This document shows positions 12,265-64,000 of a stretch of DNA of 64,000 nt, piece by piece (within the stretch, counting starts at the first letter, position 1; each line of letters begins with the position of its first letter). The position numbers and the translations under genes were made by a program. Below the pieces are notes generated by a model. It ran no database searches and was not told the DNA's origin. It saw only the letters and a list, made by a program, of their open reading frames with translations. Source of the stretch: Naegleria gruberi (Eukaryota). The stretch lies in the NCBI GenBank assembly GCA_000004985.1, contig GG738923.1; one strand, 5' to 3'.

Positions 12265-13236
<972 letters not shown>

Positions 13237-13544: not shown

Positions 13545-15026
13545 TTAATCGCCACTCAAATTTAAAATCTTATTCTTGATGGCAGTATCGATAGCATTCA
13601 AATATTGAGACAAATCTACAGAGCCATTAATGTGATTAAGATAGAAAGCATGAGAAAGGAATGGAAGTTTTCTCAGAGATCTTCCACTCAAACCCTCACA
13701 ACTCTCTGCAATTTCTTTCAGCTTTAATGCATAGGAATTTTCTGGTGCCTCCTTATCTGTCCATTTTGGTATTATTACATTTGGTTTGATAACTGAAACT
13801 CTCATCAACTCTACAAGGCATGATCTCAAAATTGAATATCTTCCCTTAGCGGAAGGTGGTCCAATATATTGCTTAATATCTGCTCGATCAACAAATGCCA
13901 AATCAATTGCCTCTGTAATGTTTGATGTTGTTAAAATGAGGACATTCTTATACCTCTTCAATTGATCCAATTGTGTTAATAGAGCATTTACAACTCTGAT
14001 ACTATCTGAAGGCTCACTTCCTGAAAGAGCACTCTTTCTGGCAGCCGTCAGTGATTCAACTTCGTCCATCAAAACACATACAAATGATTCCTCATCTTCT
14101 ACAATTTCGAATATTTTCTTGAATAATTTCATTACTAGTTTTCCACTTTCACTAAACCATTTTGAGAATAAACTGTGTGAATTAATTTCTATTAATGTAC
14201 CTCCTGATGGATATCTGTGTGACATTCTAATTGCCAGTTTCTGGGCCAATCCTTTACATAAAGATGTCTTTTATACACGAGTTAATTTATCAATAAATCA
14301 TAAAACTAACCTTTCCTAATAATAATTGTCAAAACACATTTGAAAAATAATGTAAAACAAACCTGTTCCTAATTAATGTGTTAAAAATTCAATTAAATTC
14401 AAAATACAAACCTGGAGGTCCATAGAGTAACACAACTCTATTCCAACTAATTAAATTTTGGTCAACACCCAAATCAGAAAAACGCATTGTTGTTGCAGCA
14501 TATTCCAATAAATTATATTTTACATTTTCATCAAAAATCAAACTTTCCCACAATCCATCAAATGAATCATTAGGAAGTGTCGATTGTTTACAAGCAGTAA
14601 CCTCTTCAACATCACCTCCCTCATCTGTTGTTTCCTCTATTGGTTCTTCATCAGTAGATTTAAAAACATGAATTATAAAAGTTACGTCTTGGTTAAATAG
14701 AATTGGTCCATTGTAGGCTGGATGTTGTTCCAAATCCACAATTTTAATTTGTTTAACATGTTTTACAATTAATTCTTCCCTTTCCGAAAGTTGGTGTTGT
14801 TGATTATTCTCGGAAGATAATGAAGATAATTGTATTGGAATGATTCCGTCCTGTATAATTGGCCTCCTATTGATAATCATCTCATGTACAGCATCTTGAA
14901 TAAGTTTAGGTTTGACAGTACTTTGTTGTTTTAGACAAACTATATAATTGTTAGCCAGCCTTTAAAATGATGACAATTTTCACTTTACTCACCTTCAATA
15001 TGAACTGGTGGAAGACTTGCTTGCAT
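13545..15026 (-). CDS. TRIP13/Pch2 AAA+ ATPase (pachytene checkpoint protein 2 homologue), at least 5 exons
   Basis: Collinear similarity to TRIP13 runs from [25 protein letters not shown] through [11 protein letters not shown]...[19 protein letters not shown]...[13 protein letters not shown]...ILTTSN...[14 protein letters not shown]. The first exon is [11 protein letters not shown] (15026-14993). The P-loop is split by micro-exons; see findings. Confidence 0.85.
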
Positions 15027-15110
15027 TTTATTTAATTTTACAAAACAAGTTCAGCCTGGATTGAAATTTGAGGAAGACAGATATTGTGTGTGAATTGTAT
15101 AGAGACTGAT

Positions 15111-24040: not shown

Positions 24041-26602
24041 TTATTCATCCTTTTGGGATTGGTAATCATCGTCCTCAATTGATTTCCTCTCAACGACTTC
24101 ATTCGAGTCGATATTAAGAGAGGTTTTTGTTGTGGTTGCAAGATCGTGTATATCAACAATTGCGATACCATCTGATGAAGGAGTAGATGGCTTGGAGTCG
24201 TGACTATGTCCATGATGAAGCCATTTGACCAAGTCCTTCTTTGTAATGATACCGACAAGCTTACTATTGTGCAAAACAAGGCAATATCTAACTCCCATAG
24301 CTCTAAACATATTGTAAAGTCTATCACCTGGCATTTGTGTTGGGACTTGGATTGGAATTTCATCTAAAAAGCTTGAAAGGTCAATCTTGTTAATAAGTGA
24401 AATTTGTCTTTCTGATTTGTGAAGATCTGAAAAGACAATTTCAGTCTGGTCATTGATTCTTCTATCATTTGTTAAAAGGGCGTCTTGAAGAGCTGCTTGG
24501 GTAATAAATCCAAGAACACGTCTATCATCAGAATTATCCACAATTGGGAATCCATATAACTTAAGTCCTTCTCTCAAAAGAGATTGTCTCACCTCACCAA
24601 CTGTTGCTCCCTCAACAAAAATAACTTTAAGCTTGTGAGTTGTCATGATATGTTTTGCTGTATCATCTGTATCCACTTCATCATTGTGTAAGAATGGATA
24701 TTGATTCATTTCAATATTTAGTTCATAAATGGATTCCCTATTGAAAGCATCACCAACCCATTTGGCGAACATTACAGAAAGCATAATAGGAACAAGGTAT
24801 TCCAAACCACCAGTCAATTCAAACATAATAACTGCAAGGGATACCGTAATTCTACAAACACCTCCCAACATGGTTGCAGCTCCAATAACAGCATACATAC
24901 CAGGCACAACACAACTACCTTCACCACCAGCATAACATTCTTGGAAGAATGGAGAATCAGGGAAAGTCAATTGCACATATTTCATAATACTACCAACTAG
25001 TGTACCATAACAAGCACCTATAGCCAATGAAGGGACAAGAACACCTGATGGAATCTTGATACCAACAGTCAAGGATAAAAGAATAAATCTCAATACAAAT
25101 GAAATCATCAATTTGCCCATAGCCCAGAAATTTGTTGGATCACACAACTCGACAAAGATGGAATCGGCTGAAGAATTTTCAGTACAAGTATTTTCAAATA
25201 ATCTGGCAATAAGATCAGACATTGGCATTCTTGAGTATTCGTTCCAATAGCAAAGCACTGAGGTGAGGATTGTCAATCCAATTGTTTCCAGGATTGGCCA
25301 TTTTCCAAAATACTTTTTACGAACATTCTTAATAAATGAAATATTGAGCTTGGTAAAGAGAGCTCCAAGCAATCCACCAACAATACCCAAGAAAATGAAG
25401 GCAACTGAACTATCATTAGAATGAAATTGATTCAAGAAACTTACTCAATTCGAACCATTTCCAATTTACGTGGTATGAAATGCTGTACAAGACAATTTTA
25501 CCAGATGGTCTTGGATTAATAATTTGCAAGGTCAAAGCTCCAATAACACAGGCAAAGAAAGTTCTAAAGAGCGTCTTTGGAGGGAAATAGGATGACAATT
25601 CCTCAAGTGAAAACAAAGTACCACCAGCTGGAGTACCGAAAGCACACGCCACGCCTGCAGCACAACTTGCACTAATCATTTCTCTCTTTTTGGCTTCATT
25701 ATTTCTGTATTTTGAGAAAATTCTTGAAAAGACGTTACCAACACATCCACCAACCTAAACAAAAAATCAATTCGAAAGTTCAACAAATATATACTTACAT
25801 GAACCATTGGACCTTCTTTACCCAAAGTTAATCCAGAACCAACAGCAAGGACCAACCCAATAATTTTAACAATTAAAGTCATAATACCTAAACAACCCTT
25901 GATGACAAATCCACCCAAAATTGTTTTCACTTCTGGAATTCCCGAACCTGCAGCCCAAGGAGCCAGACTCTTCACAAACCATGCACTCAAAGTGGCCATG
26001 CACACTGCAATGAATATATAGGCAAAATAGTCAAAAGCATAGGCGCCATTAGTTTCATAAATACCAAATATTTCACTCCAAGTTTTCCAGTCTTCACACT
26101 TGATACCAACTTGTTGATGTGAGATAATCGCATGTCATCTGTGTACTTACCTGGCACTTCCACGCAACATCTTGTCTGTGTGGCCAAGAAATAATTCACA
26201 CAAACTCCTTCTTTAAATCCGGCCAACCATTCCATACCCTTATCCACAATACTAGCAAATATACCAATCCAAGCACCTATCAGGAATGTCATAATCCACC
26301 CCTGTGATGCATAGTATCCTTTATGAAGAGTTGCCCAAATTCCTGTCTAAATAAATAAATAATAATAATATTTGAATTTAAATTTTCAGCAAATATATTT
26401 TCAAGTGAATATCACATACTTTTGAATAGAGTTTTGCTCTGTTTTTTCGTTCCTTTTTAATATCGGCTCTCCAATCTATAGTACTGATATTTTCATTATC
26501 GTGATAGGGATTTTTAGGAGGTTCTGGATTTGTGGTGGTTAACAATGACATCCGAATTTGATCCTTCTCCTCATCAGTGGAGAATGATCCAATAAATGAC
26601 AT
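24041..26602 (-). CDS. CLC chloride channel/transporter with C-terminal CBS domains (about 5 exons)
   Basis: The motifs GSGIPE and GKEGP lie in ORF 25676..26005. The N-terminal TIDW..KKER motif lies in ORF 26378..26602. Two CBS-like segments lie in 24041..24700. The introns are GTAAGT-type, e.g. revcomp of 25744-25798. Confidence 0.85.
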
Positions 26603-30410: not shown

Positions 30411-31795
30411 TTATTCACCAATAAGAATATATTTAAATTCAGGTGCAATTACCTTGTCCAAATGTTTCTCCAAATAATTTTCCTTAAATTCCCTTGTAAT
30501 AAATCTGAAGTTTACCCCTGTCGTTGAATCCGAGGTGCTTTTATCGGAATTCAAATTGACTGATTCTTCTTCAATTTGTTGTGGTGGAGGCATTGGAATG
30601 ATTTGTTGATCTGTCTTCCAGGAAAATAGACAAGCTCCTGTTGACTCTTCGTAGGGATTTAATTCAATGAGTTTGATATAATCACCAGTTGGAATCAAAT
30701 CTTCATTCCATTGATTGGTTTTCTCAATATCTGAGAAGAATCTTGGATAAATTACAAAATCTGCAACCATATGTTTAAAAATCATGTGCTTGTCTAGATT
30801 TTCCTTCAGATATTTTACACTCTTTTCAATCAATTGTTGAATCTGGTTATGGTATTGTTCAATTTCTTCCACGTGGACGAAATGATTGTACTGACTAATT
30901 GCAGCCAATTTTCCATTTACAATAAATGTTCTAAATTCCAATCTAATATCAATGGTTGTATCCCACCTTCTCAATGCAATCTTATTGAGTGGACTCTTCT
31001 CATTCCAAAATTCAACATATGTTTCAATTAGGTCCATATTCACTCTTGAGGATCTTAATAATAATTCTAAAACTTCATCTGATGATGAAATTTTCAAGAA
31101 TTCAGTTGCAGCCCTTGTAAAAGAAACAACTCTATTGGAATTATCGAGTTGAGCTTCCTCAGATGGATAGTGTTCCTTCAAATCTTTATGGAATAATTCC
31201 ATTACATATTTTCCATTCAATTTTGTAACATCTGCACGAACCAGTTAATTATATTTTCCCCAATTGTTTAATTTGTTGACTTACCCTTTGGAGATCTTGA
31301 TGATAGCTTGAAAAAGAGAGGTTCTCTTCTCTCCTCATCCTTCCACAAAGAACACTCATCAATTTCATGCATCAATTTTTGAATGTTTTCATCCAATTTC
31401 AATTCAATTTTCAAAGATTCAACAATTTCTCTTTCCTTTTTCTCAATTTCATCATTTGACATTTTCATCAATTGTAATTGCTTAGTTTTTGCAGAGAATT
31501 CCTCATGAATTTTAATCAATTTTAAAGCACACTCCCTCTGAATATCAATAAACACAGTGTCATAGGTAATTTCTCTCGGAATGAAAGGAACCCACTGATC
31601 CAATTGTGCCAAGATTTGATTTTCACGATAATTGTCGAGAATTGCTTTTTGTTCAGAGAACCAACTTGAAGAAAGGGATTGTTTGAAGGAGAGTGAACTT
31701 TTCTCGATAGGTTTTTGAACTCGGTTCAGTTTGAAGTTTTGGAGGTCTTGTGGGTTGATCATTTTTTTGTTTGTTTTGGATGAACATAATTTCAA
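30411..31795 (-). CDS. CDC123/D123 family protein (cell division cycle 123 homologue), 2 exons, intron approx 31221-31267
   Basis: The C-terminal region FIVNGKLAAISQ...VIYPRFF...IELNPYEESTGACLFSWK is collinear with the CDC123 ATP-grasp-like core (FVKENKLIGISQ ... IDFNPFGEVTDSLLFTWE). Confidence 0.7.
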
Positions 31796-44665: not shown

Positions 44666-47600
44666 GCATCTAGATCCTCTTCATCTTCATCAAAGGATAA
44701 TTCGGGTAGATTCTCTGAATTTGTTGCCCTCTGTAAAGACATTGAAGAGGTATCGGCTCACACTGAAAAGAGTCAAGTGATGAAGGAGTTTCTATCCGAT
44801 TTCAAGGGAGATGTTTATTTGTTGTATAAATTATTATTTGCAAAGGAAAATCAGAGAAAGTTTAATTTAAAAGATAAGAAACTTGTTGATGTTTGTGCAA
44901 GTGCATTCGGAGAAGATCTTGATGAAATGATTGATCACATGGATTCTAAAGGAGATGTTTCTGAAACTTTAAAGAAATATTTAGTGAGAAGTGATCATGC
45001 AAGAGATAAAGGAATTGTTACTTTGAAACAGGTTGATGATTTCCTTGAAGAATTAACACAATTATCAAAGAAAGAAGATCAAATTCGTGCTTTTAAGAAA
45101 TTTGTAAATGATAAGTTAACTGGAGATGAATTGAAATTTATATGTAGAATAATTTGTAAAGATTTAAAGATTAGAGCTGGACCAAAATATTTATTAGCAG
45201 CACTTCATTCTGATGCTTATCAATCCTATATTTTAACACATGATTTGAAACAAATTGTAAATGTTATAACTAGTGGAAGTGATTTAAAAAATTTATCAAT
45301 GACAGCTCAATCACTTTTAGATATTGATGCATTGATTAAAGATGCAGATAGTGATGATGAAGGTACAAATTTTGATATGATGAATATATCAGATGATGAA
45401 GATGATAAAAAGAAGAAATCATCCAAAGCAACTTCTTCCAATGATAAAAAGAAGACAATTGATAAAAAGAAGAGTAGTAAATCATCAGATAATTCTGATA
45501 AGGATGATGATTCTGGAGATGAAACAGATATTGGTGAAAATGTGGATGATATTGAGGAAAAACCTGAAGAACTTGTAGATGAAGAATCAGAGGATGATTC
45601 TAAAAAGAAAAAGAAGAATAAGAAGGCTCCTAAGAAGATTAAAATATCAACCAAGATGAAACTTTTCCATCCTGTCAAACCAATGCTTGCTCGTCCAAGT
45701 AAGACTTATGATGATGTTATTGCTCGTTGTCCAAATGGTTTTTATTCTGAACTTAAATATGATGGTGAAAGAATTCAAATTCACTATGATAGAAAAAATG
45801 ATGAAATCAAATATTTTAGTAGAAATTTGAAAGATGTTCAAGAGTATAAGATCAAATCTGTAAAAAAGTATATTTCTAAAGCTATTAAGGAAAAGGTTGA
45901 ATCTGTAATTTTAGATGGTGAAATTTTAATGATGGATACAAAGACAAATAAGATTCTTCCATTTGGTACACTTGGTAAAAATGTTAGACAAGATCACAAA
46001 GATGCTGTAACAACTATATTTTTATTTGATATATTGTATTATAATGGTAAATCACTCCTTTCAGTTCCTTTATATAAGAGAAAGGCATTAATGACTAAAA
46101 TTGTAAATCCAATCAAACATAGAGTAATGTTAGGTGAATATTTGGTTGTAAAGGGTTCAAAACAAACAAGAGAAGCTATTGTTTCTGCTGAAATGAGTGC
46201 AATGATTAAGAAGGGTGAAGAAGGTTTAGTGGTATGTATTATTTTCAAATTTATTATTAATTTTTTTATTAACAATTTTACATATTAGTTAAAAGATTTA
46301 TGTTCTCCATATGAACCTAATGCTAGACATTGGCTTAAAATGAAAAAAGATTACTTGAAAGGTATGGCAGATAGTGTAGATCTTGTTGTTCTAGGAGCTT
46401 ATCTTGGTACAGGTAGTAAAGGTGGTTTAATGTCTGTATTCATGATGGGTTCTTTTGACAAGAAATTAGGAAAGTGGAGAATTATTTGTAAATGTGGTAA
46501 CGGACACGATGATCAAACTATTGAAACATTGAATGAAGAATTGAAATCAAATATGAAAAGAATCAGTAAGGATCCTTCATTGGTTCCAGATGATATTGAT
46601 ATTCATACTAATGCTCTTGTACCTGATTTTATTGTTAAAGATCCAAAAAAGAGTGTTGTTTGGGAAATTCAAGGAGCTGAATTTTCAGTTTCCTCAAGAA
46701 AAGACAGACCAATTTCTGTCAGATTCCCTAGAGTTACAAAAATTAGAGATGATAAGGATGTTTTAGATCATACCAATTATCAAGAAATTATCAAATTGAA
46801 AAATGAAAGTAATAGAAAAGGTTTAGTGCCTATTTTTGGAGATGCTGATGCAGGAGATGATTCTGATGAAAGTGTAGATGTAAAAGATAAAAAGAAACGT
46901 TCCAGAGCTAAAAAATCAAAATCTGATGATGAAGAAGATGAATCAGATTCAAGCTCAAAGAAAAAGAAAAATTCAAGAAAGAAGAAGATAAATTCCTCAG
47001 ATGATGAAGATGATGAGGATGATAAAAAGTCAGCTAAAAAGGCTAATGATAAGAAAAAATCAAAATCCTCAGATAATTCTGATGGTGAAGATGATGATCC
47101 AAAAGCAAAGAAAGCTAAAAAGTCAACTATTGGTATCAAATTATCTGATATTGATACTATTAATGACTCTTCTACTCCAGAACAAATCTATTACATTTAT
47201 GGTGATTTTATGAAAATGCCAATGAATAAGGAAGAAAAACTAATTTCACATTGTGTAGATGACTCTAGTAGATGGTCAGATAAAGGATCAATGGGAAATA
47301 TTGAACTCTTGTATGGTGAAGATATTAAGAAGGCTTACACTGATGATATGAACATAATTGGTGATGCTCAAATTGTTGTAGCATTACCAAATCATTTATG
47401 TAATATGGTATGTCTTCAATTTGTCAAGAAAGGATCTGCACCAAAAGTTGACTATCATGCTTTGGATGAATGTTTAAAGAAATGTGCTACCTACATGAAT
47501 CAAAAAAAGATTGGTACATTCCATTTATATAGATTGCATCACGCCATTTCTGGTTTGGATTGGAATAGAGTTGAACAACTTTTGAAGGAAAATCTTTCAA

Positions 47601-47677: not shown

Positions 47678-47727
47678 NNNNNNNNNNNNNNNNNNNNNNN
47701 NNNNNNNNNNNNNNNNNNNNNNNNNNN
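47678..47727. other. Assembly gap (50 N)
   Basis: It is a run of N. Confidence 1.
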
Positions 47728-49121: not shown

Positions 49122-52100
49122 NNNNNNNNNNNNNNNNNNNNNNNNNNNNNNNNNNNNNNNNNNNNNNNNNNNNNNNNNNNNNNNNNNNNNNNNNNNNNNN
49201 NNNNNNNNNNNNNNNNNNNNNNNNNNNNNNNNNNNNNNNNNNNNNNNNNNNNNNNNNNNNNNNNNNNNNNNNNNNNNNNNNNNNNNNNNNNNNNNNNNNN
49301 NNNNNNNNNNNNNNNNNNNNNNNNNNNNNNNNNNNNNNNNNNNNNNNNNNNNNNNNNNNNNNNNNNNNNNNNNNNNNNNNNNNNNNNNNNNNNNNNNNNN
49401 NNNNNNNNNNNNNNNNNNNNNNNNNNNNNNNNNNNNNNNNNNNNNNNNNNNNNNNNNNNNNNNNNNNNNNNNNNNNNNNNNNNNNNNNNNNNNNNNNNNN
49501 NNNNNNNNNNNNNNNNNNNNNNNNNNNNNNNNNNNNNNNNNNNNNNNNNNNNNNNNNNNNNNNNNNNNNNNNNNNNNNNNNNNNNNNNNNNNNNNNNNNN
49601 NNNNNNNNNNNNNNNNNNNNNNNNNNNNNNNNNNNNNNNNNNNNNNNNNNNNNNNNNNNNNNNNNNNNNNNNNNNNNNNNNNNNNNNNNNNNNNNNNNNN
49701 NNNNNNNNNNNNNNNNNNNNNNNNNNNNNNNNNNNNNNNNNNNNNNNNNNNNNNNNNNNNNNNNNNNNNNNNNNNNNNNNNNNNNNNNNNNNNNNNNNNN
49801 NNNNNNNNNNNNNNNNNNNNNNNNNNNNNNNNNNNNNNNNNNNNNNNNNNNNNNNNNNNNNNNNNNNNNNNNNNNNNNNNNNNNNNNNNNNNNNNNNNNN
49901 NNNNNNNNNNNNNNNNNNNNNNNNNNNNNNNNNNNNNNNNNNNNNNNNNNNNNNNNNNNNNNNNNNNNNNNNNNNNNNNNNNNNNNNNNNNNNNNNNNNN
50001 NNNNNNNNNNNNNNNNNNNNNNNNNNNNNNNNNNNNNNNNNNNNNNNNNNNNNNNNNNNNNNNNNNNNNNNNNNNNNNNNNNNNNNNNNNNNNNNNNNNN
50101 NNNNNNNNNNNNNNNNNNNNNNNNNNNNNNNNNNNNNNNNNNNNNNNNNNNNNNNNNNNNNNNNNNNNNNNNNNNNNNNNNNNNNNNNNNNNNNNNNNNN
50201 NNNNNNNNNNNNNNNNNNNNNNNNNNNNNNNNNNNNNNNNNNNNNNNNNNNNNNNNNNNNNNNNNNNNNNNNNNNNNNNNNNNNNNNNNNNNNNNNNNNN
50301 NNNNNNNNNNNNNNNNNNNNNNNNNNNNNNNNNNNNNNNNNNNNNNNNNNNNNNNNNNNNNNNNNNNNNNNNNNNNNNNNNNNNNNNNNNNNNNNNNNNN
50401 NNNNNNNNNNNNNNNNNNNNNNNNNNNNNNNNNNNNNNNNNNNNNNNNNNNNNNNNNNNNNNNNNNNNNNNNNNNNNNNNNNNNNNNNNNNNNNNNNNNN
50501 NNNNNNNNNNNNNNNNNNNNNNNNNNNNNNNNNNNNNNNNNNNNNNNNNNNNNNNNNNNNNNNNNNNNNNNNNNNNNNNNNNNNNNNNNNNNNNNNNNNN
50601 NNNNNNNNNNNNNNNNNNNNNNNNNNNNNNNNNNNNNNNNNNNNNNNNNNNNNNNNNNNNNNNNNNNNNNNNNNNNNNNNNNNNNNNNNNNNNNNNNNNN
50701 NNNNNNNNNNNNNNNNNNNNNNNNNNNNNNNNNNNNNNNNNNNNNNNNNNNNNNNNNNNNNNNNNNNNNNNNNNNNNNNNNNNNNNNNNNNNNNNNNNNN
50801 NNNNNNNNNNNNNNNNNNNNNNNNNNNNNNNNNNNNNNNNNNNNNNNNNNNNNNNNNNNNNNNNNNNNNNNNNNNNNNNNNNNNNNNNNNNNNNNNNNNN
50901 NNNNNNNNNNNNNNNNNNNNNNNNNNNNNNNNNNNNNNNNNNNNNNNNNNNNNNNNNNNNNNNNNNNNNNNNNNNNNNNNNNNNNNNNNNNNNNNNNNNN
51001 NNNNNNNNNNNNNNNNNNNNNNNNNNNNNNNNNNNNNNNNNNNNNNNNNNNNNNNNNNNNNNNNNNNNNNNNNNNNNNNNNNNNNNNNNNNNNNNNNNNN
51101 NNNNNNNNNNNNNNNNNNNNNNNNNNNNNNNNNNNNNNNNNNNNNNNNNNNNNNNNNNNNNNNNNNNNNNNNNNNNNNNNNNNNNNNNNNNNNNNNNNNN
51201 NNNNNNNNNNNNNNNNNNNNNNNNNNNNNNNNNNNNNNNNNNNNNNNNNNNNNNNNNNNNNNNNNNNNNNNNNNNNNNNNNNNNNNNNNNNNNNNNNNNN
51301 NNNNNNNNNNNNNNNNNNNNNNNNNNNNNNNNNNNNNNNNNNNNNNNNNNNNNNNNNNNNNNNNNNNNNNNNNNNNNNNNNNNNNNNNNNNNNNNNNNNN
51401 NNNNNNNNNNNNNNNNNNNNNNNNNNNNNNNNNNNNNNNNNNNNNNNNNNNNNNNNNNNNNNNNNNNNNNNNNNNNNNNNNNNNNNNNNNNNNNNNNNNN
51501 NNNNNNNNNNNNNNNNNNNNNNNNNNNNNNNNNNNNNNNNNNNNNNNNNNNNNNNNNNNNNNNNNNNNNNNNNNNNNNNNNNNNNNNNNNNNNNNNNNNN
51601 NNNNNNNNNNNNNNNNNNNNNNNNNNNNNNNNNNNNNNNNNNNNNNNNNNNNNNNNNNNNNNNNNNNNNNNNNNNNNNNNNNNNNNNNNNNNNNNNNNNN
51701 NNNNNNNNNNNNNNNNNNNNNNNNNNNNNNNNNNNNNNNNNNNNNNNNNNNNNNNNNNNNNNNNNNNNNNNNNNNNNNNNNNNNNNNNNNNNNNNNNNNN
51801 NNNNNNNNNNNNNNNNNNNNNNNNNNNNNNNNNNNNNNNNNNNNNNNNNNNNNNNNNNNNNNNNNNNNNNNNNNNNNNNNNNNNNNNNNNNNNNNNNNNN
51901 NNNNNNNNNNNNNNNNNNNNNNNNNNNNNNNNNNNNNNNNNNNNNNNNNNNNNNNNNNNNNNNNNNNNNNNNNNNNNNNNNNNNNNNNNNNNNNNNNNNN
52001 NNNNNNNNNNNNNNNNNNNNNNNNNNNNNNNNNNNNNNNNNNNNNNNNNNNNNNNNNNNNNNNNNNNNNNNNNNNNNNNNNNNNNNNNNNNNNNNNNNNN

Positions 52101-55100
52101 NNNNNNNNNNNNNNNNNNNNNNNNNNNNNNNNNNNNNNNNNNNNNNNNNNNNNNNNNNNNNNNNNNNNNNNNNNNNNNNNNNNNNNNNNNNNNNNNNNNN
52201 NNNNNNNNNNNNNNNNNNNNNNNNNNNNNNNNNNNNNNNNNNNNNNNNNNNNNNNNNNNNNNNNNNNNNNNNNNNNNNNNNNNNNNNNNNNNNNNNNNNN
52301 NNNNNNNNNNNNNNNNNNNNNNNNNNNNNNNNNNNNNNNNNNNNNNNNNNNNNNNNNNNNNNNNNNNNNNNNNNNNNNNNNNNNNNNNNNNNNNNNNNNN
52401 NNNNNNNNNNNNNNNNNNNNNNNNNNNNNNNNNNNNNNNNNNNNNNNNNNNNNNNNNNNNNNNNNNNNNNNNNNNNNNNNNNNNNNNNNNNNNNNNNNNN
52501 NNNNNNNNNNNNNNNNNNNNNNNNNNNNNNNNNNNNNNNNNNNNNNNNNNNNNNNNNNNNNNNNNNNNNNNNNNNNNNNNNNNNNNNNNNNNNNNNNNNN
52601 NNNNNNNNNNNNNNNNNNNNNNNNNNNNNNNNNNNNNNNNNNNNNNNNNNNNNNNNNNNNNNNNNNNNNNNNNNNNNNNNNNNNNNNNNNNNNNNNNNNN
52701 NNNNNNNNNNNNNNNNNNNNNNNNNNNNNNNNNNNNNNNNNNNNNNNNNNNNNNNNNNNNNNNNNNNNNNNNNNNNNNNNNNNNNNNNNNNNNNNNNNNN
52801 NNNNNNNNNNNNNNNNNNNNNNNNNNNNNNNNNNNNNNNNNNNNNNNNNNNNNNNNNNNNNNNNNNNNNNNNNNNNNNNNNNNNNNNNNNNNNNNNNNNN
52901 NNNNNNNNNNNNNNNNNNNNNNNNNNNNNNNNNNNNNNNNNNNNNNNNNNNNNNNNNNNNNNNNNNNNNNNNNNNNNNNNNNNNNNNNNNNNNNNNNNNN
53001 NNNNNNNNNNNNNNNNNNNNNNNNNNNNNNNNNNNNNNNNNNNNNNNNNNNNNNNNNNNNNNNNNNNNNNNNNNNNNNNNNNNNNNNNNNNNNNNNNNNN
53101 NNNNNNNNNNNNNNNNNNNNNNNNNNNNNNNNNNNNNNNNNNNNNNNNNNNNNNNNNNNNNNNNNNNNNNNNNNNNNNNNNNNNNNNNNNNNNNNNNNNN
53201 NNNNNNNNNNNNNNNNNNNNNNNNNNNNNNNNNNNNNNNNNNNNNNNNNNNNNNNNNNNNNNNNNNNNNNNNNNNNNNNNNNNNNNNNNNNNNNNNNNNN
53301 NNNNNNNNNNNNNNNNNNNNNNNNNNNNNNNNNNNNNNNNNNNNNNNNNNNNNNNNNNNNNNNNNNNNNNNNNNNNNNNNNNNNNNNNNNNNNNNNNNNN
53401 NNNNNNNNNNNNNNNNNNNNNNNNNNNNNNNNNNNNNNNNNNNNNNNNNNNNNNNNNNNNNNNNNNNNNNNNNNNNNNNNNNNNNNNNNNNNNNNNNNNN
53501 NNNNNNNNNNNNNNNNNNNNNNNNNNNNNNNNNNNNNNNNNNNNNNNNNNNNNNNNNNNNNNNNNNNNNNNNNNNNNNNNNNNNNNNNNNNNNNNNNNNN
53601 NNNNNNNNNNNNNNNNNNNNNNNNNNNNNNNNNNNNNNNNNNNNNNNNNNNNNNNNNNNNNNNNNNNNNNNNNNNNNNNNNNNNNNNNNNNNNNNNNNNN
53701 NNNNNNNNNNNNNNNNNNNNNNNNNNNNNNNNNNNNNNNNNNNNNNNNNNNNNNNNNNNNNNNNNNNNNNNNNNNNNNNNNNNNNNNNNNNNNNNNNNNN
53801 NNNNNNNNNNNNNNNNNNNNNNNNNNNNNNNNNNNNNNNNNNNNNNNNNNNNNNNNNNNNNNNNNNNNNNNNNNNNNNNNNNNNNNNNNNNNNNNNNNNN
53901 NNNNNNNNNNNNNNNNNNNNNNNNNNNNNNNNNNNNNNNNNNNNNNNNNNNNNNNNNNNNNNNNNNNNNNNNNNNNNNNNNNNNNNNNNNNNNNNNNNNN
54001 NNNNNNNNNNNNNNNNNNNNNNNNNNNNNNNNNNNNNNNNNNNNNNNNNNNNNNNNNNNNNNNNNNNNNNNNNNNNNNNNNNNNNNNNNNNNNNNNNNNN
54101 NNNNNNNNNNNNNNNNNNNNNNNNNNNNNNNNNNNNNNNNNNNNNNNNNNNNNNNNNNNNNNNNNNNNNNNNNNNNNNNNNNNNNNNNNNNNNNNNNNNN
54201 NNNNNNNNNNNNNNNNNNNNNNNNNNNNNNNNNNNNNNNNNNNNNNNNNNNNNNNNNNNNNNNNNNNNNNNNNNNNNNNNNNNNNNNNNNNNNNNNNNNN
54301 NNNNNNNNNNNNNNNNNNNNNNNNNNNNNNNNNNNNNNNNNNNNNNNNNNNNNNNNNNNNNNNNNNNNNNNNNNNNNNNNNNNNNNNNNNNNNNNNNNNN
54401 NNNNNNNNNNNNNNNNNNNNNNNNNNNNNNNNNNNNNNNNNNNNNNNNNNNNNNNNNNNNNNNNNNNNNNNNNNNNNNNNNNNNNNNNNNNNNNNNNNNN
54501 NNNNNNNNNNNNNNNNNNNNNNNNNNNNNNNNNNNNNNNNNNNNNNNNNNNNNNNNNNNNNNNNNNNNNNNNNNNNNNNNNNNNNNNNNNNNNNNNNNNN
54601 NNNNNNNNNNNNNNNNNNNNNNNNNNNNNNNNNNNNNNNNNNNNNNNNNNNNNNNNNNNNNNNNNNNNNNNNNNNNNNNNNNNNNNNNNNNNNNNNNNNN
54701 NNNNNNNNNNNNNNNNNNNNNNNNNNNNNNNNNNNNNNNNNNNNNNNNNNNNNNNNNNNNNNNNNNNNNNNNNNNNNNNNNNNNNNNNNNNNNNNNNNNN
54801 NNNNNNNNNNNNNNNNNNNNNNNNNNNNNNNNNNNNNNNNNNNNNNNNNNNNNNNNNNNNNNNNNNNNNNNNNNNNNNNNNNNNNNNNNNNNNNNNNNNN
54901 NNNNNNNNNNNNNNNNNNNNNNNNNNNNNNNNNNNNNNNNNNNNNNNNNNNNNNNNNNNNNNNNNNNNNNNNNNNNNNNNNNNNNNNNNNNNNNNNNNNN
55001 NNNNNNNNNNNNNNNNNNNNNNNNNNNNNNNNNNNNNNNNNNNNNNNNNNNNNNNNNNNNNNNNNNNNNNNNNNNNNNNNNNNNNNNNNNNNNNNNNNNN

Positions 55101-58100
55101 NNNNNNNNNNNNNNNNNNNNNNNNNNNNNNNNNNNNNNNNNNNNNNNNNNNNNNNNNNNNNNNNNNNNNNNNNNNNNNNNNNNNNNNNNNNNNNNNNNNN
55201 NNNNNNNNNNNNNNNNNNNNNNNNNNNNNNNNNNNNNNNNNNNNNNNNNNNNNNNNNNNNNNNNNNNNNNNNNNNNNNNNNNNNNNNNNNNNNNNNNNNN
55301 NNNNNNNNNNNNNNNNNNNNNNNNNNNNNNNNNNNNNNNNNNNNNNNNNNNNNNNNNNNNNNNNNNNNNNNNNNNNNNNNNNNNNNNNNNNNNNNNNNNN
55401 NNNNNNNNNNNNNNNNNNNNNNNNNNNNNNNNNNNNNNNNNNNNNNNNNNNNNNNNNNNNNNNNNNNNNNNNNNNNNNNNNNNNNNNNNNNNNNNNNNNN
55501 NNNNNNNNNNNNNNNNNNNNNNNNNNNNNNNNNNNNNNNNNNNNNNNNNNNNNNNNNNNNNNNNNNNNNNNNNNNNNNNNNNNNNNNNNNNNNNNNNNNN
55601 NNNNNNNNNNNNNNNNNNNNNNNNNNNNNNNNNNNNNNNNNNNNNNNNNNNNNNNNNNNNNNNNNNNNNNNNNNNNNNNNNNNNNNNNNNNNNNNNNNNN
55701 NNNNNNNNNNNNNNNNNNNNNNNNNNNNNNNNNNNNNNNNNNNNNNNNNNNNNNNNNNNNNNNNNNNNNNNNNNNNNNNNNNNNNNNNNNNNNNNNNNNN
55801 NNNNNNNNNNNNNNNNNNNNNNNNNNNNNNNNNNNNNNNNNNNNNNNNNNNNNNNNNNNNNNNNNNNNNNNNNNNNNNNNNNNNNNNNNNNNNNNNNNNN
55901 NNNNNNNNNNNNNNNNNNNNNNNNNNNNNNNNNNNNNNNNNNNNNNNNNNNNNNNNNNNNNNNNNNNNNNNNNNNNNNNNNNNNNNNNNNNNNNNNNNNN
56001 NNNNNNNNNNNNNNNNNNNNNNNNNNNNNNNNNNNNNNNNNNNNNNNNNNNNNNNNNNNNNNNNNNNNNNNNNNNNNNNNNNNNNNNNNNNNNNNNNNNN
56101 NNNNNNNNNNNNNNNNNNNNNNNNNNNNNNNNNNNNNNNNNNNNNNNNNNNNNNNNNNNNNNNNNNNNNNNNNNNNNNNNNNNNNNNNNNNNNNNNNNNN
56201 NNNNNNNNNNNNNNNNNNNNNNNNNNNNNNNNNNNNNNNNNNNNNNNNNNNNNNNNNNNNNNNNNNNNNNNNNNNNNNNNNNNNNNNNNNNNNNNNNNNN
56301 NNNNNNNNNNNNNNNNNNNNNNNNNNNNNNNNNNNNNNNNNNNNNNNNNNNNNNNNNNNNNNNNNNNNNNNNNNNNNNNNNNNNNNNNNNNNNNNNNNNN
56401 NNNNNNNNNNNNNNNNNNNNNNNNNNNNNNNNNNNNNNNNNNNNNNNNNNNNNNNNNNNNNNNNNNNNNNNNNNNNNNNNNNNNNNNNNNNNNNNNNNNN
56501 NNNNNNNNNNNNNNNNNNNNNNNNNNNNNNNNNNNNNNNNNNNNNNNNNNNNNNNNNNNNNNNNNNNNNNNNNNNNNNNNNNNNNNNNNNNNNNNNNNNN
56601 NNNNNNNNNNNNNNNNNNNNNNNNNNNNNNNNNNNNNNNNNNNNNNNNNNNNNNNNNNNNNNNNNNNNNNNNNNNNNNNNNNNNNNNNNNNNNNNNNNNN
56701 NNNNNNNNNNNNNNNNNNNNNNNNNNNNNNNNNNNNNNNNNNNNNNNNNNNNNNNNNNNNNNNNNNNNNNNNNNNNNNNNNNNNNNNNNNNNNNNNNNNN
56801 NNNNNNNNNNNNNNNNNNNNNNNNNNNNNNNNNNNNNNNNNNNNNNNNNNNNNNNNNNNNNNNNNNNNNNNNNNNNNNNNNNNNNNNNNNNNNNNNNNNN
56901 NNNNNNNNNNNNNNNNNNNNNNNNNNNNNNNNNNNNNNNNNNNNNNNNNNNNNNNNNNNNNNNNNNNNNNNNNNNNNNNNNNNNNNNNNNNNNNNNNNNN
57001 NNNNNNNNNNNNNNNNNNNNNNNNNNNNNNNNNNNNNNNNNNNNNNNNNNNNNNNNNNNNNNNNNNNNNNNNNNNNNNNNNNNNNNNNNNNNNNNNNNNN
57101 NNNNNNNNNNNNNNNNNNNNNNNNNNNNNNNNNNNNNNNNNNNNNNNNNNNNNNNNNNNNNNNNNNNNNNNNNNNNNNNNNNNNNNNNNNNNNNNNNNNN
57201 NNNNNNNNNNNNNNNNNNNNNNNNNNNNNNNNNNNNNNNNNNNNNNNNNNNNNNNNNNNNNNNNNNNNNNNNNNNNNNNNNNNNNNNNNNNNNNNNNNNN
57301 NNNNNNNNNNNNNNNNNNNNNNNNNNNNNNNNNNNNNNNNNNNNNNNNNNNNNNNNNNNNNNNNNNNNNNNNNNNNNNNNNNNNNNNNNNNNNNNNNNNN
57401 NNNNNNNNNNNNNNNNNNNNNNNNNNNNNNNNNNNNNNNNNNNNNNNNNNNNNNNNNNNNNNNNNNNNNNNNNNNNNNNNNNNNNNNNNNNNNNNNNNNN
57501 NNNNNNNNNNNNNNNNNNNNNNNNNNNNNNNNNNNNNNNNNNNNNNNNNNNNNNNNNNNNNNNNNNNNNNNNNNNNNNNNNNNNNNNNNNNNNNNNNNNN
57601 NNNNNNNNNNNNNNNNNNNNNNNNNNNNNNNNNNNNNNNNNNNNNNNNNNNNNNNNNNNNNNNNNNNNNNNNNNNNNNNNNNNNNNNNNNNNNNNNNNNN
57701 NNNNNNNNNNNNNNNNNNNNNNNNNNNNNNNNNNNNNNNNNNNNNNNNNNNNNNNNNNNNNNNNNNNNNNNNNNNNNNNNNNNNNNNNNNNNNNNNNNNN
57801 NNNNNNNNNNNNNNNNNNNNNNNNNNNNNNNNNNNNNNNNNNNNNNNNNNNNNNNNNNNNNNNNNNNNNNNNNNNNNNNNNNNNNNNNNNNNNNNNNNNN
57901 NNNNNNNNNNNNNNNNNNNNNNNNNNNNNNNNNNNNNNNNNNNNNNNNNNNNNNNNNNNNNNNNNNNNNNNNNNNNNNNNNNNNNNNNNNNNNNNNNNNN
58001 NNNNNNNNNNNNNNNNNNNNNNNNNNNNNNNNNNNNNNNNNNNNNNNNNNNNNNNNNNNNNNNNNNNNNNNNNNNNNNNNNNNNNNNNNNNNNNNNNNNN

Positions 58101-61100
58101 NNNNNNNNNNNNNNNNNNNNNNNNNNNNNNNNNNNNNNNNNNNNNNNNNNNNNNNNNNNNNNNNNNNNNNNNNNNNNNNNNNNNNNNNNNNNNNNNNNNN
58201 NNNNNNNNNNNNNNNNNNNNNNNNNNNNNNNNNNNNNNNNNNNNNNNNNNNNNNNNNNNNNNNNNNNNNNNNNNNNNNNNNNNNNNNNNNNNNNNNNNNN
58301 NNNNNNNNNNNNNNNNNNNNNNNNNNNNNNNNNNNNNNNNNNNNNNNNNNNNNNNNNNNNNNNNNNNNNNNNNNNNNNNNNNNNNNNNNNNNNNNNNNNN
58401 NNNNNNNNNNNNNNNNNNNNNNNNNNNNNNNNNNNNNNNNNNNNNNNNNNNNNNNNNNNNNNNNNNNNNNNNNNNNNNNNNNNNNNNNNNNNNNNNNNNN
58501 NNNNNNNNNNNNNNNNNNNNNNNNNNNNNNNNNNNNNNNNNNNNNNNNNNNNNNNNNNNNNNNNNNNNNNNNNNNNNNNNNNNNNNNNNNNNNNNNNNNN
58601 NNNNNNNNNNNNNNNNNNNNNNNNNNNNNNNNNNNNNNNNNNNNNNNNNNNNNNNNNNNNNNNNNNNNNNNNNNNNNNNNNNNNNNNNNNNNNNNNNNNN
58701 NNNNNNNNNNNNNNNNNNNNNNNNNNNNNNNNNNNNNNNNNNNNNNNNNNNNNNNNNNNNNNNNNNNNNNNNNNNNNNNNNNNNNNNNNNNNNNNNNNNN
58801 NNNNNNNNNNNNNNNNNNNNNNNNNNNNNNNNNNNNNNNNNNNNNNNNNNNNNNNNNNNNNNNNNNNNNNNNNNNNNNNNNNNNNNNNNNNNNNNNNNNN
58901 NNNNNNNNNNNNNNNNNNNNNNNNNNNNNNNNNNNNNNNNNNNNNNNNNNNNNNNNNNNNNNNNNNNNNNNNNNNNNNNNNNNNNNNNNNNNNNNNNNNN
59001 NNNNNNNNNNNNNNNNNNNNNNNNNNNNNNNNNNNNNNNNNNNNNNNNNNNNNNNNNNNNNNNNNNNNNNNNNNNNNNNNNNNNNNNNNNNNNNNNNNNN
59101 NNNNNNNNNNNNNNNNNNNNNNNNNNNNNNNNNNNNNNNNNNNNNNNNNNNNNNNNNNNNNNNNNNNNNNNNNNNNNNNNNNNNNNNNNNNNNNNNNNNN
59201 NNNNNNNNNNNNNNNNNNNNNNNNNNNNNNNNNNNNNNNNNNNNNNNNNNNNNNNNNNNNNNNNNNNNNNNNNNNNNNNNNNNNNNNNNNNNNNNNNNNN
59301 NNNNNNNNNNNNNNNNNNNNNNNNNNNNNNNNNNNNNNNNNNNNNNNNNNNNNNNNNNNNNNNNNNNNNNNNNNNNNNNNNNNNNNNNNNNNNNNNNNNN
59401 NNNNNNNNNNNNNNNNNNNNNNNNNNNNNNNNNNNNNNNNNNNNNNNNNNNNNNNNNNNNNNNNNNNNNNNNNNNNNNNNNNNNNNNNNNNNNNNNNNNN
59501 NNNNNNNNNNNNNNNNNNNNNNNNNNNNNNNNNNNNNNNNNNNNNNNNNNNNNNNNNNNNNNNNNNNNNNNNNNNNNNNNNNNNNNNNNNNNNNNNNNNN
59601 NNNNNNNNNNNNNNNNNNNNNNNNNNNNNNNNNNNNNNNNNNNNNNNNNNNNNNNNNNNNNNNNNNNNNNNNNNNNNNNNNNNNNNNNNNNNNNNNNNNN
59701 NNNNNNNNNNNNNNNNNNNNNNNNNNNNNNNNNNNNNNNNNNNNNNNNNNNNNNNNNNNNNNNNNNNNNNNNNNNNNNNNNNNNNNNNNNNNNNNNNNNN
59801 NNNNNNNNNNNNNNNNNNNNNNNNNNNNNNNNNNNNNNNNNNNNNNNNNNNNNNNNNNNNNNNNNNNNNNNNNNNNNNNNNNNNNNNNNNNNNNNNNNNN
59901 NNNNNNNNNNNNNNNNNNNNNNNNNNNNNNNNNNNNNNNNNNNNNNNNNNNNNNNNNNNNNNNNNNNNNNNNNNNNNNNNNNNNNNNNNNNNNNNNNNNN
60001 NNNNNNNNNNNNNNNNNNNNNNNNNNNNNNNNNNNNNNNNNNNNNNNNNNNNNNNNNNNNNNNNNNNNNNNNNNNNNNNNNNNNNNNNNNNNNNNNNNNN
60101 NNNNNNNNNNNNNNNNNNNNNNNNNNNNNNNNNNNNNNNNNNNNNNNNNNNNNNNNNNNNNNNNNNNNNNNNNNNNNNNNNNNNNNNNNNNNNNNNNNNN
60201 NNNNNNNNNNNNNNNNNNNNNNNNNNNNNNNNNNNNNNNNNNNNNNNNNNNNNNNNNNNNNNNNNNNNNNNNNNNNNNNNNNNNNNNNNNNNNNNNNNNN
60301 NNNNNNNNNNNNNNNNNNNNNNNNNNNNNNNNNNNNNNNNNNNNNNNNNNNNNNNNNNNNNNNNNNNNNNNNNNNNNNNNNNNNNNNNNNNNNNNNNNNN
60401 NNNNNNNNNNNNNNNNNNNNNNNNNNNNNNNNNNNNNNNNNNNNNNNNNNNNNNNNNNNNNNNNNNNNNNNNNNNNNNNNNNNNNNNNNNNNNNNNNNNN
60501 NNNNNNNNNNNNNNNNNNNNNNNNNNNNNNNNNNNNNNNNNNNNNNNNNNNNNNNNNNNNNNNNNNNNNNNNNNNNNNNNNNNNNNNNNNNNNNNNNNNN
60601 NNNNNNNNNNNNNNNNNNNNNNNNNNNNNNNNNNNNNNNNNNNNNNNNNNNNNNNNNNNNNNNNNNNNNNNNNNNNNNNNNNNNNNNNNNNNNNNNNNNN
60701 NNNNNNNNNNNNNNNNNNNNNNNNNNNNNNNNNNNNNNNNNNNNNNNNNNNNNNNNNNNNNNNNNNNNNNNNNNNNNNNNNNNNNNNNNNNNNNNNNNNN
60801 NNNNNNNNNNNNNNNNNNNNNNNNNNNNNNNNNNNNNNNNNNNNNNNNNNNNNNNNNNNNNNNNNNNNNNNNNNNNNNNNNNNNNNNNNNNNNNNNNNNN
60901 NNNNNNNNNNNNNNNNNNNNNNNNNNNNNNNNNNNNNNNNNNNNNNNNNNNNNNNNNNNNNNNNNNNNNNNNNNNNNNNNNNNNNNNNNNNNNNNNNNNN
61001 NNNNNNNNNNNNNNNNNNNNNNNNNNNNNNNNNNNNNNNNNNNNNNNNNNNNNNNNNNNNNNNNNNNNNNNNNNNNNNNNNNNNNNNNNNNNNNNNNNNN

Positions 61101-64000
61101 NNNNNNNNNNNNNNNNNNNNNNNNNNNNNNNNNNNNNNNNNNNNNNNNNNNNNNNNNNNNNNNNNNNNNNNNNNNNNNNNNNNNNNNNNNNNNNNNNNNN
61201 NNNNNNNNNNNNNNNNNNNNNNNNNNNNNNNNNNNNNNNNNNNNNNNNNNNNNNNNNNNNNNNNNNNNNNNNNNNNNNNNNNNNNNNNNNNNNNNNNNNN
61301 NNNNNNNNNNNNNNNNNNNNNNNNNNNNNNNNNNNNNNNNNNNNNNNNNNNNNNNNNNNNNNNNNNNNNNNNNNNNNNNNNNNNNNNNNNNNNNNNNNNN
61401 NNNNNNNNNNNNNNNNNNNNNNNNNNNNNNNNNNNNNNNNNNNNNNNNNNNNNNNNNNNNNNNNNNNNNNNNNNNNNNNNNNNNNNNNNNNNNNNNNNNN
61501 NNNNNNNNNNNNNNNNNNNNNNNNNNNNNNNNNNNNNNNNNNNNNNNNNNNNNNNNNNNNNNNNNNNNNNNNNNNNNNNNNNNNNNNNNNNNNNNNNNNN
61601 NNNNNNNNNNNNNNNNNNNNNNNNNNNNNNNNNNNNNNNNNNNNNNNNNNNNNNNNNNNNNNNNNNNNNNNNNNNNNNNNNNNNNNNNNNNNNNNNNNNN
61701 NNNNNNNNNNNNNNNNNNNNNNNNNNNNNNNNNNNNNNNNNNNNNNNNNNNNNNNNNNNNNNNNNNNNNNNNNNNNNNNNNNNNNNNNNNNNNNNNNNNN
61801 NNNNNNNNNNNNNNNNNNNNNNNNNNNNNNNNNNNNNNNNNNNNNNNNNNNNNNNNNNNNNNNNNNNNNNNNNNNNNNNNNNNNNNNNNNNNNNNNNNNN
61901 NNNNNNNNNNNNNNNNNNNNNNNNNNNNNNNNNNNNNNNNNNNNNNNNNNNNNNNNNNNNNNNNNNNNNNNNNNNNNNNNNNNNNNNNNNNNNNNNNNNN
62001 NNNNNNNNNNNNNNNNNNNNNNNNNNNNNNNNNNNNNNNNNNNNNNNNNNNNNNNNNNNNNNNNNNNNNNNNNNNNNNNNNNNNNNNNNNNNNNNNNNNN
62101 NNNNNNNNNNNNNNNNNNNNNNNNNNNNNNNNNNNNNNNNNNNNNNNNNNNNNNNNNNNNNNNNNNNNNNNNNNNNNNNNNNNNNNNNNNNNNNNNNNNN
62201 NNNNNNNNNNNNNNNNNNNNNNNNNNNNNNNNNNNNNNNNNNNNNNNNNNNNNNNNNNNNNNNNNNNNNNNNNNNNNNNNNNNNNNNNNNNNNNNNNNNN
62301 NNNNNNNNNNNNNNNNNNNNNNNNNNNNNNNNNNNNNNNNNNNNNNNNNNNNNNNNNNNNNNNNNNNNNNNNNNNNNNNNNNNNNNNNNNNNNNNNNNNN
62401 NNNNNNNNNNNNNNNNNNNNNNNNNNNNNNNNNNNNNNNNNNNNNNNNNNNNNNNNNNNNNNNNNNNNNNNNNNNNNNNNNNNNNNNNNNNNNNNNNNNN
62501 NNNNNNNNNNNNNNNNNNNNNNNNNNNNNNNNNNNNNNNNNNNNNNNNNNNNNNNNNNNNNNNNNNNNNNNNNNNNNNNNNNNNNNNNNNNNNNNNNNNN
62601 NNNNNNNNNNNNNNNNNNNNNNNNNNNNNNNNNNNNNNNNNNNNNNNNNNNNNNNNNNNNNNNNNNNNNNNNNNNNNNNNNNNNNNNNNNNNNNNNNNNN
62701 NNNNNNNNNNNNNNNNNNNNNNNNNNNNNNNNNNNNNNNNNNNNNNNNNNNNNNNNNNNNNNNNNNNNNNNNNNNNNNNNNNNNNNNNNNNNNNNNNNNN
62801 NNNNNNNNNNNNNNNNNNNNNNNNNNNNNNNNNNNNNNNNNNNNNNNNNNNNNNNNNNNNNNNNNNNNNNNNNNNNNNNNNNNNNNNNNNNNNNNNNNNN
62901 NNNNNNNNNNNNNNNNNNNNNNNNNNNNNNNNNNNNNNNNNNNNNNNNNNNNNNNNNNNNNNNNNNNNNNNNNNNNNNNNNNNNNNNNNNNNNNNNNNNN
63001 NNNNNNNNNNNNNNNNNNNNNNNNNNNNNNNNNNNNNNNNNNNNNNNNNNNNNNNNNNNNNNNNNNNNNNNNNNNNNNNNNNNNNNNNNNNNNNNNNNNN
63101 NNNNNNNNNNNNNNNNNNNNNNNNNNNNNNNNNNNNNNNNNNNNNNNNNNNNNNNNNNNNNNNNNNNNNNNNNNNNNNNNNNNNNNNNNNNNNNNNNNNN
63201 NNNNNNNNNNNNNNNNNNNNNNNNNNNNNNNNNNNNNNNNNNNNNNNNNNNNNNNNNNNNNNNNNNNNNNNNNNNNNNNNNNNNNNNNNNNNNNNNNNNN
63301 NNNNNNNNNNNNNNNNNNNNNNNNNNNNNNNNNNNNNNNNNNNNNNNNNNNNNNNNNNNNNNNNNNNNNNNNNNNNNNNNNNNNNNNNNNNNNNNNNNNN
63401 NNNNNNNNNNNNNNNNNNNNNNNNNNNNNNNNNNNNNNNNNNNNNNNNNNNNNNNNNNNNNNNNNNNNNNNNNNNNNNNNNNNNNNNNNNNNNNNNNNNN
63501 NNNNNNNNNNNNNNNNNNNNNNNNNNNNNNNNNNNNNNNNNNNNNNNNNNNNNNNNNNNNNNNNNNNNNNNNNNNNNNNNNNNNNNNNNNNNNNNNNNNN
63601 NNNNNNNNNNNNNNNNNNNNNNNNNNNNNNNNNNNNNNNNNNNNNNNNNNNNNNNNNNNNNNNNNNNNNNNNNNNNNNNNNNNNNNNNNNNNNNNNNNNN
63701 NNNNNNNNNNNNNNNNNNNNNNNNNNNNNNNNNNNNNNNNNNNNNNNNNNNNNNNNNNNNNNNNNNNNNNNNNNNNNNNNNNNNNNNNNNNNNNNNNNNN
63801 NNNNNNNNNNNNNNNNNNNNNNNNNNNNNNNNNNNNNNNNNNNNNNNNNNNNNNNNNNNNNNNNNNNNNNNNNNNNNNNNNNNNNNNNNNNNNNNNNNNN
63901 NNNNNNNNNNNNNNNNNNNNNNNNNNNNNNNNNNNNNNNNNNNNNNNNNNNNNNNNNNNNNNNNNNNNNNNNNNNNNNNNNNNNNNNNNNNNNNNNNNNN
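49122..64000. other. Assembly gap (14,879 N)
   Basis: It is a run of N to the end of the window. Confidence 1.

Follow-up and report, generated by a model that had tools for sequence, protein, structure and literature searches.

The window analyzed here, a 64,000-nucleotide stretch of Naegleria gruberi contig GG738923.1, contains on its minus strand a gene whose predicted product is a TRIP13/PCH2 AAA+ ATPase. The gene is modelled with the following parts, in the order of transcription (a slash within a sequence marks an intron position, and loci labelled L belong to the comparisons described below):

Exon 1 (34 nt), 15026-14993, minus strand: ATG at 15026, 11 residues and the first base of a Val codon.
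Intron 1 (53 nt), 14992-14940, minus strand: GTGAGT...CTAAC...TAG, phase 1; position kept in Willaertia and L089.
Exon 2 (528 nt), 14939-14412, minus strand: ends with ...LLYGPP and the first base of Gly188 (CTC TAT GGA CCT CCA G).
Intron A (43 nt), 14411-14369, minus strand: GTTTGT...TTAAC...TAG, phase 1 in Gly188; same position and phase in L004, L007 and L076.
Micro-exon 1, GAACAG (6 nt), 14368-14363, minus strand: finishes Gly188, gives Thr189 and opens Gly190.
Intron B (47 nt), 14362-14316, minus strand: GTTTGT...TTGAC...TAG, phase 1 in Gly190; same position and phase in L003, L042 and L048.
Micro-exon 2, GAAAG (5 nt), 14315-14311, minus strand: finishes Gly190 and gives the Walker A lysine, Lys191.
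Intron C (43 nt), 14310-14268, minus strand: GTTAGT...TTAAC...AAG, phase 0 between Lys191 and Thr192; same position in L089 and L090.
Last exon (723 nt with its TAA stop), 14267-13545, minus strand: opens ACA TCT TTA TGT AAA GGA and reads from TSLCKGLAQ to NLSGD and the stop, the open reading frame ending at 13545.

The spliced model is 431 amino acids long and contains LLYGPPGTGKTSLCKG, with GPPGTGKTSLCKG as the in-frame product across the P-loop. Its mRNA is modelled to read CTCTATGGACCTCCAG/GAACAG/GAAAG/ACATCTTTATGTA over the junctions, and the models predict distinct k-mers for the fully spliced transcript (CTCTATGGACCTCCAGGAACAGGAAAGACATCTTTATGTA), for a transcript that skips the 6-nt exon (CCTCCAGGAAAGACATC), and for one that skips both exons (CCTCCAGACATCTTT).

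The assignment to TRIP13, which the initial annotation had already made from the letters of the sequence, is borne out by domain and structure searches. The protein matches the Pfam families PF23563 (TRIP13_N, 47.3 bits), PF00004 (AAA, 88.1 bits) and PF23242 (AAA_lid_TRIP13_C, 86.2 bits), all above the curated cut-offs, and residues 66-422 match the human TRIP13 structure 6lk0 with an E value of 2.5e-111. In a 12-sequence alignment of the N. gruberi protein with eleven homologues, GPPGTGKTSLC and the Walker B residues Asp259 and Glu260 (in VLMDEVES) are invariant. The Walker A motif itself (GPPGTGKT) exists only once both micro-exons are joined. TRIP13 is a checkpoint ATPase, and the activity that defines its class is the ATP-dependent remodelling of HORMA-domain proteins. 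With an ATP-binding loop that is predicted to be intact, Naegleria TRIP13 would apparently be a normal, functional member of the class. A recent study reports that N. gruberi TRIP13 is expressed and down-regulated in mitosis, and that a p31comet homolog is present in Naegleria; earlier gene models of kinetochore homologs were checked there against RNA-seq, and the TRIP13 locus was not singled out (bioRxiv 10.64898/2026.08.18.745565).

The public counterpart of this gene is a 400-residue 'predicted protein' (NAEGRDRAFT_82071; EFC37017.1, XP_002669761.1, UniProt D2W1S8) that starts with MIINRRP and is not called TRIP13 in the databases. It was used as N. gruberi TRIP13 by van Hooff et al. (2017), whose orthologue file lists it as NGRU015420 (PMC5579357, Dataset EV1) and whose sequence led to EFC37017.1 by exact look-up. 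The protein is identical to our spliced model from Met32 to the stop and includes both LLYGPPGTGKTSLCKG and GPPGTGKTSLCKG; because one canonical splice pattern alone yields that peptide from the DNA of the locus, the public protein carries both micro-exons. Its start is the internal Met at 14880, so that exon 1 and the first 31 residues are missing. The 31 N-terminal residues added here (15026-14881, minus strand) align with Willaertia and L089 and lie within the TRIP13_N match, which begins at residue 5 and thereby backs exon 1. Exon 1 also has a counterpart in Willaertia (L001) and L089, where a PVHVE exon ends in an intron at the matching position. From these alignments, the public model appears to be truncated at its 5′ end, and the restoration of the first exon and 31 residues is an annotation fix gained from the analysis. 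The sequence cluster that contains EFC37017.1 has a representative of 234 aa that is about 99% identical.

The splice pattern has been part of the public gene model since 2010, which makes it a curiosity rather than a discovery. The micro-exon structure was already annotated, yet apparently never remarked upon. Within the literature collection searched, we found no paper citing the accessions of the TRIP13 locus, and the co-mentions of microexons and Naegleria that were retrieved were off-topic by their titles and abstracts.

The feature that sets the gene apart is the division of the P-loop. The initial annotation had proposed that the Walker A codons missing from the two flanking long exons are supplied by GAACAG and GAAAG, set between three introns. 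When the minus strand was re-read, the coordinates and sequences of all three introns and of both micro-exons proved exact to the base. The TAG acceptor ahead of each micro-exon and the GTTTGT or GTTAGT donor after it are likewise as described, intron C itself ending in AAG, and in silico removal of the introns of 43, 47 and 43 nt restores the P-loop in frame. Both exons are internal, no longer than 15 nt, flanked by introns, and essential to the frame or the motif, as is characteristic of coding micro-exons.

The three introns also carry the signals expected of ordinary ones. Each has a branch-like motif of the YTRAY type (TTAAC, TTGAC and TTAAC for A, B and C, respectively), the branch A lying 12, 13 and 14 nt from the acceptor; in intron 1, the equivalent CTAAC lies at 11 nt. 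Their lengths fit the window, in which 12 other candidate introns link one open reading frame to the next; ten of these are 40-63 nt long and the remaining two measure 73 and 122 nt. Donor, acceptor, branch-like motif, typical length, and a restored frame and homology are thus all found for introns A, B and C, as for U2-type GT-AG introns.

In order to establish whether this splice model is forced, we listed all the ways in which up to three GT/GC-AG introns, each no shorter than 20 nt, can be placed between the WNRV and SLCK codons. Among the 556 combinations, 51 keep the downstream frame open, and exactly one, the three-intron model, gives a Walker A motif (G..G.GK[ST]). The claim that no single intron restores either the frame or the motif therefore stands for the motif, which two-intron solutions do not restore either, and fails for the frame: single introns with the donors GTTGTG at 14436 and GTGTTA at 14433, both ending at 14268, restore the frame while deleting the P-loop altogether. 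Models with one or two introns were rejected; none restores the motif, and the in-frame single introns have poor donors and delete 11-12 invariant residues.

We then shuffled the 144 nt and asked for one or two mini-exons, flanked by AG and followed by GT, that supply GN-ACN-GGN-AAR (encoding G-T-G-K). No micro-exon solution arose in 200,000 mononucleotide shuffles or in 100,000 dinucleotide-preserving shuffles of this region. The split P-loop pattern is far beyond chance.

These results bear directly on the concern that the micro-exons are an artefact of a model forced by homology, and that the region is really one long intron or a disabling insertion in a pseudogene without Thr-Gly-Lys. Short matching strings can indeed be found by homology-guided predictors, and by human readers, when they are sought. 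Against this, the split 11 nt with flanking AG and GT appeared in 0 of 300,000 shuffles, removal of the 144 nt as one intron causes a frameshift and an early stop, and the single introns that do keep the frame have the poor donors and the loss of 11-12 conserved residues already mentioned. The gene is otherwise intact, with high conservation over its 431 aa, it is expressed (bioRxiv 10.64898/2026.08.18.745565), and each of the intron positions is used independently in other species (see below). We regard such an artefact as highly improbable.

An error in the assembly was considered as well. An environmental contig (L084/L085, from ERR1078381) agrees with the window at 99.1% of 1996 nt and has the 144 nt unchanged. 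The absence of a single difference in 14268-14411 from this independent contig rules out an assembly artefact, which was rejected. The contig is too similar to be informative on selection or conservation, and it probably comes from another N. gruberi strain. Its TRIP13 differs from that of the window at two residues (S to W and L to F), and just upstream of the ATG (15064-15101) it has lost 12 nt and 2 nt in separate deletions and carries a cluster of substitutions.

The signals, the reading frame and the homology together require the splice pattern. We hold it to be very probable that the 11 nt completing Walker A in TRIP13 (G-GA ACA G-GA AAG, for Gly-Thr-Gly-Lys) are cut by three ordinary U2-type GT-AG introns into exons of 6 and 5 nt. 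The observation of the initial annotation is correct, and its reading of three introns and two micro-exons is supported as a model of the gene.

For comparison, 83 TRIP13 loci (L001-L083) were examined, three of which were obtained by exact protein look-up and 80 from a metagenome scan. The P-loop is uninterrupted in 76 loci, including Willaertia magna (L001), the best match in a protein similarity search (65%), and Acrasis kona (L002); in six loci a single intron interrupts it, and the one remaining contig lacks the region. Position A (CCA G/GA, phase 1) has an intron in L004, L007 and L076, and position B (ACA G/GN, phase 1) in L003, L042 and L048. In a small panel, the best match of L003, L004 and L007 was Acrasis, and that of L076, L042 and L048 was an oomycete; by sequence, the former three are probably heterolobosean. 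The intron at position A in L007 also opens with GTTTGT. In Basidiobolus, Marchantia and Lingula, the 11 nt are unbroken, and introns occur at other positions nearby.

Position C (AAG/ACG, phase 0) is occupied in two further contigs, L089 and L090, the latter from TARA. L089 is a 3.7-kb environmental contig found in a second protein search with the N-terminal half as query; it has intron 1 and a 37-nt intron at C, and none at A or B. Its spliced TRIP13 is 77.6% identical to that of N. gruberi versus 62% to that of Willaertia, and the former value makes it the closest relative found.

In the orthologue comparison that had been suggested for the micro-exon structure, each single intron position is found elsewhere. 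Beyond the near-identical contig L084/L085, the micro-exon pair is absent from every genome reached: L089 has intron C alone, and Willaertia and Acrasis have none of the three. The matches of the two protein searches included no other Naegleria species (N. fowleri, N. lovaniensis). Each of the three positions is a genuine site of introns in TRIP13 genes of other organisms, and among the genomes reached, N. gruberi alone combines them. The micro-exons follow from the coexistence of introns A, B and C in one gene.

How the cluster arose may be considered in light of the sites themselves, which resemble proto-splice sites (CAG/G, CAG/G and AAG/A for A, B and C). Three intron positions at AG/G or AG/A, each of them used elsewhere, would have come together in one lineage. 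The cluster could stem from retention in N. gruberi with loss elsewhere, or from repeated gain. If the cluster is ancestral and was lost differentially, the loss of A and B in L089 and that of B and C in L004 and L007 each take one event, and L003 takes two. Alternatively, introns could have been gained repeatedly and independently at favorable sites, with several protist lineages hitting the P-loop codons GGN-ACN-GGN-AAR/ACN. Were such independent hits confirmed, TRIP13 would offer a natural test case for recurrent gain at proto-splice sites versus differential loss from an ancestor with micro-exons.

A third origin would trace A, B and C to recent copying of a mobile element of the 'introner' type or to tandem duplication of one intron. 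It would account for a local burst, as is hinted at by three introns inside 11 coding nt, two of which have a GTTTGT donor and an ATTAG end in common. Pairwise alignments of A, B and C, however, give z values of 0.23, 1.05 and -0.74 against composition-matched shuffles, and other introns of the window score alike. In this comparison, which covered the introns of the window (about 49 kb of sequence), the three introns have no likeness beyond composition and hence no sign of a recent duplication or an introner family. The position of intron C is moreover common to L089, a relative only 77.6% identical, and is hence not recent. We therefore rejected an introner or a tandem duplication as very improbable.

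The architecture of the locus also constrains how these introns could be removed. Exons of 5-6 nt are too short for exon definition. An acceptor and the next donor only 5-6 nt apart would leave no room for two adjacent spliceosomes, and each short intron, with its own branch-like motif 12-14 nt before the acceptor, would be recognized by intron definition. The three introns would presumably be removed successively rather than simultaneously, the order of events being inferred. The shortness of the exons, together with the proximity of the splice sites, thus points to intron definition and hence to one-by-one removal; most likely, introns A, B and C are constitutive and are removed in this successive manner. 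A structure in the RNA that brings the splice sites together was considered and rejected, as the fold of the 181-nt region is no more stable than that of shuffles (z = +1.1) and no unusual RNA structure is indicated.

An active ATPase would need the removal of all three introns. According to the sequence, a transcript that retains intron A would run into a stop after 7 extra codons, one that retains B after 14 and one that retains C after 6, and skipping of the 5-nt exon or of both exons results in a frameshift and an early stop. If only the 6-nt exon is left out, the frame is preserved but the product reads GPPGKT, which does not fit the consensus G-x4-G-K-[ST].

The donors of the three introns differ from those elsewhere in the window. 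All three have T at position +3 (GTTTGT, GTTTGT and GTTAGT), in contrast to the GTA or GTG donors of 13 other candidate introns (intron 1 included), a contrast that is tentative since the candidates are unvalidated. A T at +3 versus A or G elsewhere in the window suggests that the donors of A, B and C are weaker than typical. The candidates compared for their donors include 46232-46288, 31232-31284, 25755-25798 and 467-508.

Such a cluster of weak donors raises the possibility that splicing is regulated and gates the production of active TRIP13 through detained introns or micro-exon skipping. Consistent with this idea, skipping of the 6-nt exon preserves the frame and abolishes Walker A, every other mis-splicing event leads to an early stop, and the GTT donors of all three introns stand against the GTA and GTG donors of the other candidate introns in the window. 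Plant micro-exons have been reported with more detained flanking introns (PMC8831610), and the level of Naegleria TRIP13 mRNA varies with the cell cycle (bioRxiv 10.64898/2026.08.18.745565). On the other hand, the locus yielded neither a conserved intronic element nor an RNA structure (fold z = +1.1; introns alike only in composition), and relatives do without introns A, B and C. We consider regulated splicing unlikely. A more specific form, in which the GTT-donor introns act as a splicing checkpoint and active TRIP13 is made only when all of them are removed, for example in a still-unobserved sexual or meiotic stage, with detained transcripts, early-stop ones or ones for a GPPGKT protein unable to bind ATP at other times, strikes us as quite unlikely. 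If splicing were regulated, this would constitute a new way to gate an AAA+ ATPase. Constitutive, successive removal of the three introns remains the reading that we prefer.

Exons of this kind are known from other systems. In plants, coding micro-exons that measure 1-15 nt and are spliced constitutively are well documented (Yu et al., 2022; PMC8831610), among them two neighbors in the rice gene for a Peptidase M1 (5 and 12 nt, validated by RT-PCR) and a 1-nt exon in APC11 (PMC8831610). Like those of TRIP13, they are tiny internal coding exons that often are not multiples of three, lie inside conserved domains and are essential to the frame; they are sometimes adjacent and have been lost in some lineages by loss of the flanking introns (PMC8831610). 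The plant micro-exons are reported to be conserved across land plants (PMC8831610), whereas the TRIP13 pair is seen in one species. The TRIP13 case further differs from the plant ones in that both exons are at most 6 nt long, the introns measure merely 43-47 nt, and the window is gene-dense with long open reading frames.

By way of comparison, the neuronal micro-exons of animals (3-27 nt, dependent on SRRM4 or PRP-40) are likewise too short for exon definition and in need of special handling by the splicing machinery. They are spliced alternatively and regulated by tissue, mostly have lengths divisible by three, and sit between long introns that carry enhancers, whereas no regulation is indicated at TRIP13. 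As far as can be told, the TRIP13 micro-exons are mechanistically unrelated to neuronal ones of the SRRM4 type.

Nearer to hand, the TRIP13 genes of Heterolobosea (Willaertia magna, Acrasis kona, L089, L003, L004 and L007) are orthologous and 56-78% identical, and N. gruberi, Willaertia and L089 have in common an intron that follows the PVH(I/V)E exon. None of these relatives has more than one P-loop intron, and hence none has a micro-exon. The kind of feature, a coding micro-exon, is thus known, and the TRIP13 instance is more extreme than most, with two successive exons of at most 6 nt in an invariant catalytic motif.

For TRIP13 biology, the arrangement is of little consequence, the public protein set already having an intact ATP-binding loop. 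It does provide an extreme test example for gene finders and RNA-seq aligners, with consecutive exons of at most 6 nt, set apart by introns of some 45 nt, which standard mapping of spliced reads would probably miss. For intron evolution, it adds a data point in which three positions, occupied singly in related lineages, fall within 11 coding nt of one species with a gene-dense genome.

Elsewhere in the window, a polyubiquitin gene at about 12285-13182 (minus strand) consists of four 228-nt ubiquitin repeats. In the second repeat (12727-12954), one nucleotide is missing after ATGCAAATT, and an extra one (ATCTTTCGCTGG) some 125 nt further on compensates for it; in the assembly the repeat reads MQILSRL followed by a stop, and polyubiquitin would be truncated after the first unit. 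The damage could be a sequencing error in the 2010 assembly or genuine. Runs of N occupy 47678-47727 and 49122-64000, leaving about 49 kb of real sequence; the longer of the two resembles padding or a gap in the scaffold. Five single-exon open reading frames in the window match N. gruberi proteins exactly (EFC37020.1, EFC37025.1 and EFC36974.1-EFC36976.1).
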